Source: a bacterium (GTDB lineage: Bacteria > UBA9089 > UBA9088). Taken from it: a DNA stretch of 25,695 bases. Below are positions 13,518-16,221 of the stretch, piece after piece; the stretch's first letter is position 1; each line of letters starts with the position of its first letter. The notes beneath the pieces were generated by a model. The model was given only the letters and a program-made list of their open reading frames with translations, did not search any database and was not told where the DNA came from. The position numbers and the translations under genes are program-made. The DNA lies in assembly GCA_040756715.1 (NCBI GenBank), contig JBFLYE010000186.1:1-25695 (forward strand), read 5' to 3'.

Positions 13518-15353
13518 CTTTCTTATGGAATGTGCAATGCCTTGTGAAGAAAGCCCATATTTTTCCAAAAGCTCATTTCTTTTTCCCTGCTCAATAAATT
13601 TATCGGGAAGACCTAGGGAATAAACCATTACATTTTTATCAGATAAAAGCTTAGAAACAGCCGACCCAAAACCACAAGAGACATTATGGTCTTCAATGGT
13701 AATTATCTTCCGCCTTATGTTTTTAAGAATAAGATCTTCGGGAAGGGGCTTTATAAATCTGCAATTTATAAGGGATAAAGAAAGCCTCTCTTTTTTTAAC
13801 AAAGCAATAGCCTCCATTGCAATGTCTACCATACAGCCAGTAGCAAGGATAAGGCAGTTTTTTCCTTCTTCCAAAAGCTCTCCCTCTCCTATAGCAAAGG
13901 GAGGAAGACTTAAATCATAATCAAATTTATCAAGTCCCTTTGGATAGCGAATGGCAAATGGGCCATTGTAATTAAGGGCTGTTTTTACAAGCCTCCCTAA
14001 TTCATTTAAATTTCTTGGTGAGGATAAAACCATATTTGGGCAGGATGAAAGGTATGAAAGATCAAATAGCCCCTGATGGGTCTCTCCATCCTCACCCACA
14101 ATCCCAGCTCGGTCAACCATAAAAACAACCGGTAGATTTTGAAGGCAGACATCATGGATTATCTGGTCATAAGCACGCTGTAGGAATGTTGAGTAAATGC
14201 AGACAAATGGCTTAAGCCCTTCCTTTGCCATAGCCCCTGCCATTGTAACCGCATGTTCCTCGCAGATTCCAACATCAAATGCTCTCTCAGGAAGCTCTTT
14301 AAAGAAATTTGAAATGCCACACCCCGAAACCATTGCCGCGGTTATAACCACAACCCTCCTGTCCTCTTTTGCCAGGGCTAATATAATCTCACCAAAGGCT
14401 TGTGAATATGTCTTTTGCTCTTGTTTCATTAAGGGTTTTCCTGTTTTAATCTCAAATGGGGAGCTTCCGTGGAATAATTCTGGATTTTCCTCAGCCATTT
14501 TATAACCCTTTCCCTTTTTTGTAATAATATGAAGAAGAATAGGTCCTTTTTGCTCCTTTATGTTTTTTAGGGTTTTTATCAAAAGAGAAATATTGTGGCC
14601 ATCTATTGGTCCAATGTATCTAAAGCCAAGCTCTTCAAAGAGAATGCCAGGGACAATCATTGCCTTTATCCCCTCCTCAATTTTATGGGAAATCTTAATT
14701 GCCTTTTTCCCCAAGGGAAGCCTTTTTATAAGAGAGTTCATATCCTCCCTAAACTTCATATAAATAGGGAGGGTGATAAGCTTATTAAGGTATTTAGAAA
14801 GGCTGCCCACGGTCTCTGATATGGACATCTCATTGCTATTTAAGATAACCAGAAGGTCTCTCTTTTCAGCCCCGGCATAGTTTAACGCCTCAAAGCTTAA
14901 TCCACCACCCATCGCACCATCGCCGATTACGGCAACAATTTTTTTGTTTTCTTTCTTAAGGTCTCTAGCAATCGCCATTCCCAGAGCAAGAGAAATGGAT
15001 GTAGAGGCATGCCCGGTATCAAATGCATCATAGATGCTCTCAAGAGTTTTTGGAAAGCCTGATATTCCACCCAGCTGACGCAGGGTGTGGAATTTATCAG
15101 CTCTTCCGGTCAATATTTTATGGGCATAGCTTTGATGACCAACATCCCAAATTAGCCTGTCCTTTGAAAATGAGAAGACATAATGAAGGGCAAGGGTAAG
15201 CTCAACCACACCCAGGGAGGAGGCTAAATGCCCACCTGTTTTTGATGTGGTTTCTATGATTAGCTCCCTTATCTCTTCTGCTAATTCTTTAAGCTCATTA
15301 AGGTTTAAACCTTTAAGGTCTTCTGGGTCTTTTATTCTATCAAGCCTATTCGT
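13506..15353 (-). CDS. dxs: 1-deoxy-D-xylulose-5-phosphate synthase, 615 aa, apparent ACG start
   Basis: WDVGHQSYAHK, GHASTSIS, GDGAM, YIGPIDGH, DVGICEEHAV, YSTFLQRAYDQ, DRAG. Frame is open 48 codons upstream of the track GTG through the conserved LDRIKDPEDLK...GGHLASSLG; SD AAGGAGG 6 nt before ACG at 15353. Confidence 0.93.
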   Translation of the reverse strand, partial: TNRLDRIKDPEDLKGLNLNELKELAEEIRELIIETTSKTGGHLASSLGVVELTLALHYVFSFSKDRLIWDVGHQSYAHKILTGRADKFHTLRQLGGISGFPKTLESIYDAFDTGHASTSISLALGMAIARDLKKENKKIVAVIGDGAMGGGLSFEALNYAGAEKRDLLVILNSNEMSISETVGSLSKYLNKLITLPIYMKFREDMNSLIKRLPLGKKAIKISHKIEEGIKAMIVPGILFEELGFRYIGPIDGHNISLLIKTLKNIKEQKGPILLHIITKKGKGYKMAEENPELFHGSSPFEIKTGKPLMKQEQKTYSQAFGEIILALAKEDRRVVVITAAMVSGCGISNFFKELPERAFDVGICEEHAVTMAGAMAKEGLKPFVCIYSTFLQRAYDQIIHDVCLQNLPVVFMVDRAGIVGEDGETHQGLFDLSYLSSCPNMVLSSPRNLNELGRLVKTALNYNGPFAIRYPKGLDKFDYDLSLPPFAIGEGELLEEGKNCLILATGCMVDIAMEAIALLKKERLSLSLINCRFIKPLPEDLILKNIRRKIITIEDHNVSCGFGSAVSKLLSDKNVMVYSLGLPDKFIEQGKRNELLEKYGLSSQGIAHSIRKICV

Positions 15354-16221
15354 TTTTTTCCTCCTTCAGAACCTTCTTTATCTGGACAGCCATATTTCCT
15401 CCTGATATGCCAGGGGTGGCAATAAATCTTTCCTTTCCTCCTACACACAAGACAACACCATCAGAAACTCTGGTGGGAAGCTTTAGGACATCACCGCAAG
15501 AGAGATTTAAGACCTCCTTTATTGTTAATTTTGTCTTCCCAAGAAGGGCAACCACGGAAAGGGAGATAAGCCCAATTGTTGTAGAAGTCATTTCTTTTGT
15601 TTTCTTTTCCTCCTTTGGTTTTGTGGTTAGTCTATCAAGGTATGGTTCAATGCTTATGAATGGAAGGCATAAAGAAAAATTTTCTTCCCTTTCCTTTATT
15701 TTTATTTTAAAACCCGTTTTTAGGATAATCTCGTTTGGAGATATAGCCTTAAGAGAAAGGGGGTTTGTTGCTATGTCCTCTAATTTAAAATCTATCTCAC
15801 AAACCCTGGCCCATGCCTGTTTAAGGAAACTTATAAGCTCATCCAGCACTTTTTTAAGAATCTCCCTCTCAACGCTTGTTATCTCCCTATCTATTTCAAT
15901 GCTTTCTCCCTTTCCCCCCAAAAATTTATCAATGAGGTAAAAAGCAAGGCTTGGTTTTAGCCAGATTATAGAAAGGGATGTAAGTGGAGCTTGGGAAATT
16001 AAACCGAGTATTGTTGGATATGGATATTTTGCGATAAAGCTTGAGTAATCTGTCTGTAAAGAATCCTCTGTTTCTATGGTAACCTCTTCTCCTGATCTAT
16101 TGGAAAGCCAAGCCCCTGTTTTTTTAGAAAACCCCTCATAAATTGTCTTTAAGCTAATGAGATTATCCTTGGTTAGCCGTGGTGGATTTCTAAAATCATA
16201 ATCGTAAATCTCTTTTTCCAT
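15346..16221 (-). CDS. fliM: Flagellar motor switch protein FliM (lacking N-terminal CheY-binding peptide)
   Basis: YDFRNP, IDKFLGG, REITSVE, CLPFISIEP, C-terminal SpoA-type LGKTKLTIKEVLNLSCGDVL; in-frame TGA directly upstream of the ATG. Confidence 0.9.
   Translation of the reverse strand: MEKEIYDYDFRNPPRLTKDNLISLKTIYEGFSKKTGAWLSNRSGEEVTIETEDSLQTDYSSFIAKYPYPTILGLISQAPLTSLSIIWLKPSLAFYLIDKFLGGKGESIEIDREITSVEREILKKVLDELISFLKQAWARVCEIDFKLEDIATNPLSLKAISPNEIILKTGFKIKIKEREENFSLCLPFISIEPYLDRLTTKPKEEKKTKEMTSTTIGLISLSVVALLGKTKLTIKEVLNLSCGDVLKLPTRVSDGVVLCVGGKERFIATPGISGGNMAVQIKKVLKEEKNE

Follow-up and report, generated by a model that had tools for sequence, protein, structure and literature searches.

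Where does translation of dxs begin in contig JBFLYE010000186.1 (GenBank assembly GCA_040756715.1)? The contig, analysed over its full length of 25,695 nt (the window), is contig C186 of a metagenome-assembled genome (MAG), designated G000, that consists of 218 contigs, totals 1.55 Mb and is 96% complete. Both fliM and dxs are encoded on the minus strand, with the dxs frame at +1 relative to fliM, and from an in-frame TGA close to the 3′-end of fliM the dxs frame continues without an ATG, GTG or TTG until a GTG at 15209. A preliminary description, made from the letters of the window, had proposed that dxs starts at an ACG inside the 3′-end of fliM, based on four statements, all of which are correct: no canonical start codon precedes GTG 15209, the GGH motif of Dxs is encoded upstream of that GTG, AAGGAGG is positioned as a ribosome-binding site (RBS) 6 nt before the ACG, and the choice between ACG and ATG is silent in fliM, where the C of the ACG occupies the third position of an Asn codon (AAC or AAT). 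The sequence comparisons reported here indicate that dxs very probably initiates at some near-cognate codon and, within this genus, is probably translated from the ACG at 15353-15351. This is the best-supported reading, unproven versus initiation at an ATA located six codons further downstream.

The 3′-end of fliM reads CTG AAG GAG GAA AAA AAC GAA TAG. In the dxs frame, the same region reads TGA AGG AGG AAA AAA ACG AAT AGG CTT GAT AGA ATA AAA GAC CCA GAA GAC, so that AAGGAGG is followed by exactly six A residues and then by ACG (coordinates are listed in Table 1). GTG 15209 is 48 codons past the ACG, being the 49th codon counted from ACG and the 53rd after the upstream stop codon. Initiation at this GTG would result in a protein without the GGH motif, the His residue of which is required for catalysis by Dxs.

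The dxs frame is open for 615 codons from the ACG and encodes a protein with the full three-domain architecture of Dxs. The Pfam profile DXP_synthase_N is matched in the ACG-started protein over 1-274 of 274 (E 7.6e-122), with profile position 1 aligned to residue 4, and is accompanied by matches to Transket_pyr (E 1.9e-42) and Transketolase_C (E 2.3e-25). The GGH motif is present within SKTGGHLAS, residues 37-45 counted from the ACG, and the thiamine diphosphate (ThDP) binding motif GDG...N is present as GDGAMGGGLSFEALNYAGAEKRDLLVILNSN. Dxs is the first enzyme of the methylerythritol phosphate (MEP) pathway. In G000, dxs is single-copy, the only full match in the genome; dxr is present in the window (20185-20559), as the preliminary description had noted, ispH was also found in the genome, and no gene for HMG-CoA reductase was found in this 96% complete assembly. 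The dxs gene should, therefore, be needed (essential).

Spacing and sequence context of the ACG codon

Among the first-in-frame canonical start codons in G000 that are preceded by GGAGG, the distance from GGAGG to the start codon peaks at 5-10 nt, with a mode of 6 nt (30 of 186 starts), and only three of the 186 are separated from GGAGG by 24 nt, which is the background level. In dxs, the ACG is 6 nt and the ATA 24 nt from GGAGG. The start region is predicted to be less structured than shuffled controls, with a folding z-score of +1.2. ACG makes up 0.26% of the codons in the long open reading frames (ORFs) of G000 and AAT, rather than AAC, provides 75% of the Asn codons, so there is nothing on the fliM side that explains why the C has been kept. 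The residues encoded between the ACG and the ATA (N/D-R/L-L-D/E-R) fit the N-terminal consensus, x-L-L-[DE]-x-I, of Dxs proteins from 30 relatives. A product started at the ACG is expected to have the N-terminus (f)Met- or Thr-NRLDRIKDPEDLK, and a product started at the ATA to begin MKDPEDLK.

Conservation of the ACG codon in the genus

Three species of this uncultured genus, at least one of which originates from groundwater, are represented by G000, G001 and G002. The dxs frame reads TGA AGG AGG AAA AAA ACG GAT AGG CTT GAG AGA ATA in G001 and TGA AGG AGG AAG GAA ACG AAT CTA CTT GAA AGA ATA in G002, and the arrangement TGA-AGGAGG-6 nt-ACG is, therefore, identical in all three. Counting from the upstream stop, the first ATG, GTG or TTG is reached at codon 53 in both G000 and G001, and at codon 85 in G002. 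The three genomes are from distinct organisms: four-fold degenerate sites in dxs differ at 20% (G000-G001), 37% (G000-G002) and 38% (G001-G002), with amino acid identities of 95%, 83% and 85%, respectively. A Logan contig assembled from a groundwater metagenome, with a word depth of 13x, has the G002 version without any difference, although this contig may stem from the same sample as the G002 MAG and so counts as an independent assembly only. Scans of sequence collections for further relatives returned matches of ≤55% identity, dominated by the universal motif WDVGHQSY, that were uninformative about the start codon.

The preliminary description had left a base-call error as an alternative to a non-canonical start. 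As three species and a separately assembled contig all have the ACG with the same RBS, the sequences exclude such an error and the observation is real.

The start of dxs in related lineages

Outside the genus, the codon at the homologous place is variable. In L195 (JGI contig Ga0181613_1001211), ACA replaces ACG, there is no canonical start codon for 130 codons and the candidate start codon is ATC or CTG. The candidate is TTG in L192, TTG or GTG in L191, GTG in G003, and ATG, directly after the fliM stop codon, in L193. In the next family (G004 to G006) and in the more distant relatives examined, dxs has a canonical start codon at this location, mostly ATG with a few GTG or TTG. By comparison, 82% of the RBS-led starts in G000 are ATG. 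Among orthologs, the close relatives thus have ACG, not the ATG that the preliminary description had set against it, and the more distant ones have ATG, TTG, GTG or ATC/CTG. The Dxs tree leaves the branching among these family lineages unresolved, and the lineages are not independent, but the turnover among different weak codons hints that this family tolerates, or even favours, weak initiation of dxs.

Candidate near-cognate start codons in hflX and other genes

All long ORFs in G000 were surveyed for missing canonical start codons. The dxs gene is the sole case in which an ACG with a strong RBS precedes a long ORF that has no canonical start, and, of the RBS matches in the survey that are followed, at start spacing, by a near-cognate codon and then by a coding-like ORF, its AAGGAGG is the longest. 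There is, then, no genome-wide use of ACG in G000, nor are near-cognate codons enriched behind RBSs in this genome. The survey, of a kind that the preliminary description had envisaged, identified hflX; tyrA and a gene encoding an M48 peptidase are further candidates for initiation at near-cognate codons other than ACG in G000.

In most genomes of the order, hflX has no canonical start codon and, in each case, a RBS precedes the codon that takes its place. In G000 (contig C16, minus strand, ATA at 9326-9324), GAGGTGA is followed by ATA GAA AGG GCT ATT ATT GTT, and the first canonical codon is 21 codons later, within the GTP-bdg_N domain. In G006, hflX reads AAT ATG AAA GAA GCA ACC ATA ATT GTT GAT. 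In G004 and G005, congeners of G006, AGAGGTGAG is followed, after 5-6 nt, by ACG AAA GAA GCA/GTA ACA/ACT ATA ATT/ATC GTT, with no canonical start for another 20-odd codons (22 in G004). An ACG behind a RBS thus occupies, in a different family of the same order, the precise position of the ATG of a sister species. In G003, AGGAGGT is followed after 9 nt by ACG, with ATA as an alternative candidate, and in G002 a RBS precedes a GTA, as yet unexplained, at the position of the ATA in G000.

The tyrA gene (prephenate dehydrogenase; C191:5757, plus strand) probably starts at an ATC, 4 nt after GAAGGTGA, as position 1 of the Rossmann profile aligns with residue 2 and initiation at the first canonical codon would remove the first beta strand. 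The M48 peptidase gene (C162:1997, minus strand) probably starts at an ATA, 4 nt after GAGGTGA (an aligned spacing of 7).

Possible initiation at ATA

The alternative that survives best is that ribosomes re-initiate at the ATA after terminating at the fliM stop codon 10 nt upstream, generating a Dxs of 609 amino acids that begins MKDPEDL. The preliminary description did not consider this codon; its proposal of a non-canonical start nevertheless stands as the best reading, given the modal spacing, the unstructured start region and the ACG/ATG exchange in hflX. ATA is a permitted start codon in NCBI translation table 11 and was chosen in two public gene calls (P0002, of 609 amino acids, and P0007), both of which begin MKDPEDL. 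An ATA is also located 2-10 nt past the fliM stop codon in G000, G002 and L195. The gene callers' choice was, however, forced, as table 11 does not allow a start at ACG. Other public Dxs calls have 536 amino acids (L194, a Logan contig) or 491 amino acids (L195), both without the catalytic GGH motif, and are shortened for want of a permitted start codon ahead of the N-terminus.

Several further observations weigh against initiation at ACG, some of which favour the ATA directly. In Escherichia coli reporters, initiation at ACG is 0.1-1% of that at AUG, below the 1-2% obtained with ATA (10.1101/063800). The G003 Dxs ortholog is as short at the N-terminus as the ATA-started protein, beginning at a GTG just before SPEDV, which shows that Dxs can do without the first six residues, from ACG to ATA, and that a protein started at the ATA would probably be functional. 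G000 has no second ACG candidate with a strong RBS. A comparison of three species has little power, as there is roughly an even chance that a neutral site would not have changed in any of them, and AAGGAGG also encodes K-E-E in the FliM tail and is present in L191, where the dxs start is far downstream, so that conservation of AAGGAGG is not specific evidence for a start at ACG.

Against the ATA, the sole RBS is 24 nt away, a distance at which starts in G000 occur at the background level, and in E. coli re-initiation without a RBS is inhibited by IF3 (PMC2268962). As the ATA also encodes the Ile of the LLxxI motif, conserved throughout the Dxs proteins, retention of this codon is uninformative about its use as a start. 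On balance, re-initiation at the ATA is possible but rather unlikely, and both ACG and ATA could be used. What the sequences show is the anatomy of the locus, its conservation, the distribution of RBS spacings and the lack of a special tRNA; that decoding takes place at the ACG in preference to the ATA is our inference, as are the identity of the first residue, how efficiently initiation proceeds and the coupling to fliM discussed below.

RNA editing, frameshifting and assembly errors

If the C at 15352 were edited to U in the mRNA, an AUG would be translated, as occurs with plant organelle genes in which an ACG is edited to AUG. The present data provide no direct support for this. No example of start codon editing in a bacterium turned up in the literature on ACG starts and initiator tRNA, in which no search was aimed at bacterial editing, and the presence of ATC/CTG, TTG and GTG in sister lineages fits weak initiation and not editing. 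We consider editing very improbable.

A FliM-Dxs fusion protein could in principle be generated by a +1 ribosomal frameshift, or by slippage during transcription of the seven consecutive A residues, as dxs is in the +1 frame relative to fliM and GAA AAA AAC provides such a run in G000 and G001. The run is, however, broken in G002 (GAA GGA AAC) and absent from L195, both of which also lack a canonical start codon. In L191 and L193, fliM and dxs are separate, and dxs has its own start codon (TTG/GTG and ATG, respectively). A C-ring protein fused to a 68-kDa enzyme would, moreover, seem implausible. As the slippery motif is not conserved across the species that would need it, this explanation, which is scarcely credible, was rejected.

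An error of sequencing or assembly, or a decaying pseudogene, can be given almost no weight: G000 is a MAG of 218 contigs and livH on contig C34, at the least, seems to be frameshifted, but the ACG is common to three species and an independently built contig, the dxs frame is open throughout, Dxs has retained 83-95% amino acid identity against 20-38% change at four-fold sites, and this is the sole dxs in a genome with the MEP pathway in which the mevalonate pathway marker was not found.

Proposed mechanism

Initiation at the ACG would require no special tRNA. The 30S subunit would bind AAGGAGG within the last codons of fliM, placing the ACG, 6 nt downstream, in the P site, where the ordinary initiator fMet-tRNA (anticodon CAU) would read the codon despite a mismatched middle base, and Dxs would, therefore, begin with fMet. 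The initiator tRNA gene in G000, on contig C43, encodes the C1xA72 mismatch and the anticodon CAT. A dedicated ACG-reading initiator tRNA was considered and rejected: the tRNA-Thr(CGT) is an ordinary elongator, paired at 1:72 and without a run of G-C pairs. Without a special tRNA, near-cognate pairing of fMet-tRNA(CAU) with ACG is therefore the simplest mechanism. Initiation at ACG in E. coli reporters gives a product with N-terminal Met and a trace of Thr (Hecht et al., 10.1101/063800).

The ACG would be an intrinsically weak start, offset by the strong RBS, the unstructured start region and coupling to fliM, with ribosomes that finish fliM 3-5 nt from the ACG presumably providing the translational coupling. 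The predicted outcome is a low, fliM-linked output of Dxs, and, judging from the E. coli reporters, an ACG start would be expected to lower the level of Dxs, as the preliminary description had also suggested. A weak dxs start may have been selected or may merely be tolerated.

Organization of the fliM-dxs locus

The features of the locus are listed in Table 1. A strong promoter-like site was found upstream of fliM, but neither a promoter-like nor a terminator-like site between fliM and dxs; the two genes are therefore likely to be co-transcribed, and translation of dxs is likely to be coupled to the ribosomes that terminate on fliM. Adjacency of fliM and dxs is maintained in G000 to G003, L191 and L193 to L195. 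With a flagellar switch protein gene next to, or overlapping, a gene of the MEP pathway throughout the family, this is an unusual operon pairing that has no obvious functional logic.

Table 1. Features of the fliM-dxs region. Positions are those of the window.
Feature	Position	Strand	Basis or remark
Proposed dxs coding sequence, 615 codons beginning at ACG, then TAA (13508-13506)	13506..15353	-	Translation; three Pfam domains; sole full dxs match in the genome
ACG, proposed initiation codon of dxs	15351..15353	-	Modal spacing from GGAGG; kept in G001, G002 and the Logan contig
AAGGAGG, RBS; also codes for Lys-Glu-Glu of the FliM C-terminus	15360..15366	-	Sequence of G000 and relatives
In-frame TGA that closes the dxs frame upstream	15366..15368	-	Translation
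fliM, 291 codons plus TAG (15348-15346); last 8 bases overlap dxs from the ACG	15346..16221	-	Pfam FliM, FliMN_C
ATA, rival start codon of public gene calls, 609-amino acid product MKDPEDL...	15333..15335	-	24 nt after GGAGG
GGT GGG CAT, GGH motif of Dxs	15228..15236	-	Upstream of the first canonical start codon
GTG, first canonical start codon in frame; a start here would delete the GGH motif	15207..15209	-	Sequence
Run of seven A, candidate slippage site, rejected	15353..15359	-	In G000 and G001; not in G002 or L195
Promoter-like site: TTGACA, 17 nt, CATAAT, with TG before the second hexamer; 11/12 matches	16230..16258	-	Upstream of fliM

Two disrupted genes were encountered elsewhere in G000. 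The livH-like permease gene (C34, minus strand, near strand position 790) has a change of frame where nine T residues follow, consistent with a homopolymer assembly error or a pseudogene. A molybdopterin oxidoreductase with the twin-arginine translocation (Tat) signal MSISRRDFIK (C43, minus strand, strand positions 60-2320) is encoded by two separate ORFs that are out of frame with each other, the result of a frameshift or assembly error and not of an in-frame TGA.

Initiator tRNA and 16S rRNA methyltransferases

It is conceivable that the order as a whole has a relaxed discrimination of start codons, such that ACG, along with ATA and ATC, serves there as a heritable start codon in regular use, dxs and hflX being two visible cases of what may be a larger set. 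We regard this broader reading as distinctly unlikely. Two lineage traits may bear on it. The initiator tRNA-fMet of G000 (C43 1714-1787, minus strand) has A29:U41, giving an anticodon stem and loop that read ..AGG CTCATAA CCT.. and leaving two of the three canonical G-C pairs. Of the seven genomes of the order, six have A29:U41 (G000 to G004 and G006; no initiator tRNA was found in G005). Elsewhere in the phylum, the 17 genomes in which an initiator tRNA was found all have GGG...CCC, with G:C at 29:41. Alpha-proteobacteria and some mycoplasmas are known to have the au/GC/GC variant, which has a slight defect in E. coli (PMC5389676). The variant initiator tRNA may contribute and provides a lead, but alone does not predict ACG starts. 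To our knowledge, the alpha-proteobacteria and mycoplasmas that have it are not noted for ACG starts.

The second trait is the lack of a methyltransferase of the RsmB/F family (PF01189, the 16S rRNA m5C967 methyltransferase type), no member of which was found above the cut-off in any of 25 genomes of the phylum (G000 to G024). In control genomes, 13 of 14 had a match above the cut-off and all 14 gave a match. As RsmB/F was found in none of these 25 genomes of the phylum, its absence is not specific to the order, and this phylum-wide lack may contribute to a relaxed discrimination. A missing RsmD was rejected as a cause; no genome of the order lacks RsmD (PF03602), which was found in 22 of the 25 genomes searched.

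Relation to known start codons

The dxs ACG is an instance of a rare kind of start codon, the closest established analogue of which is the AUU of infC and pcnB. In E. coli, infC, encoding IF3, and pcnB start at a conserved AUU that, as with the ACG of dxs, is a conserved near-cognate codon behind a RBS in a housekeeping gene, and is decoded by the ordinary fMet-tRNA with reduced, potentially IF3-sensitive initiation, as is proposed for dxs. Unlike AUU, the ACG is mismatched at the middle base and is outside table 11, and dxs has no evident autoregulatory logic and overlaps the end of a flagellar gene. Eukaryotic and viral ACG starts, for example that of adeno-associated virus (AAV) VP2, and the ACG codons edited to AUG in plant organelles likewise have ACG at the position of the initiator Met, but depend on scanning with Met-tRNAi or on C-to-U editing, unlike a bacterial dxs. 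We know of neither eukaryotic-style scanning nor C-to-U editing of start codons in bacteria.

The E. coli reporter is similar to dxs in that an ACG behind a RBS directs synthesis of a full-length protein, but was engineered, whereas the ACG of dxs is natural, conserved across species and on a presumably essential gene (Hecht et al., 10.1101/063800). Among the annotated starts in 79 genome and plasmid sequences, CTG, ATT, ATC and ATA, but not ACG, are named in addition to ATG, GTG and TTG (10.1101/063800). The open-access literature searched, in which absence is no proof, contained no natural bacterial ACG start, only those of plant organelles (edited), eukaryotes and their viruses.

As ACG is outside the start codons allowed by bacterial gene finders and NCBI table 11, the public dxs calls are wrong or forced, and, if the order-wide reading were true, standard gene finders would systematically truncate proteins of this lineage. 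The lineage also offers a natural system for asking if an initiator tRNA with A:U as first pair, or a missing P-site methylation, alters the fidelity of start codon selection. The conserved ACG of dxs, together with the ACG/ATG exchange in hflX, adds to the case for ACG as a real, if rare, bacterial start codon, and suggests that the amount of the first MEP-pathway enzyme in this lineage is governed by an initiation that is both weak and coupled.

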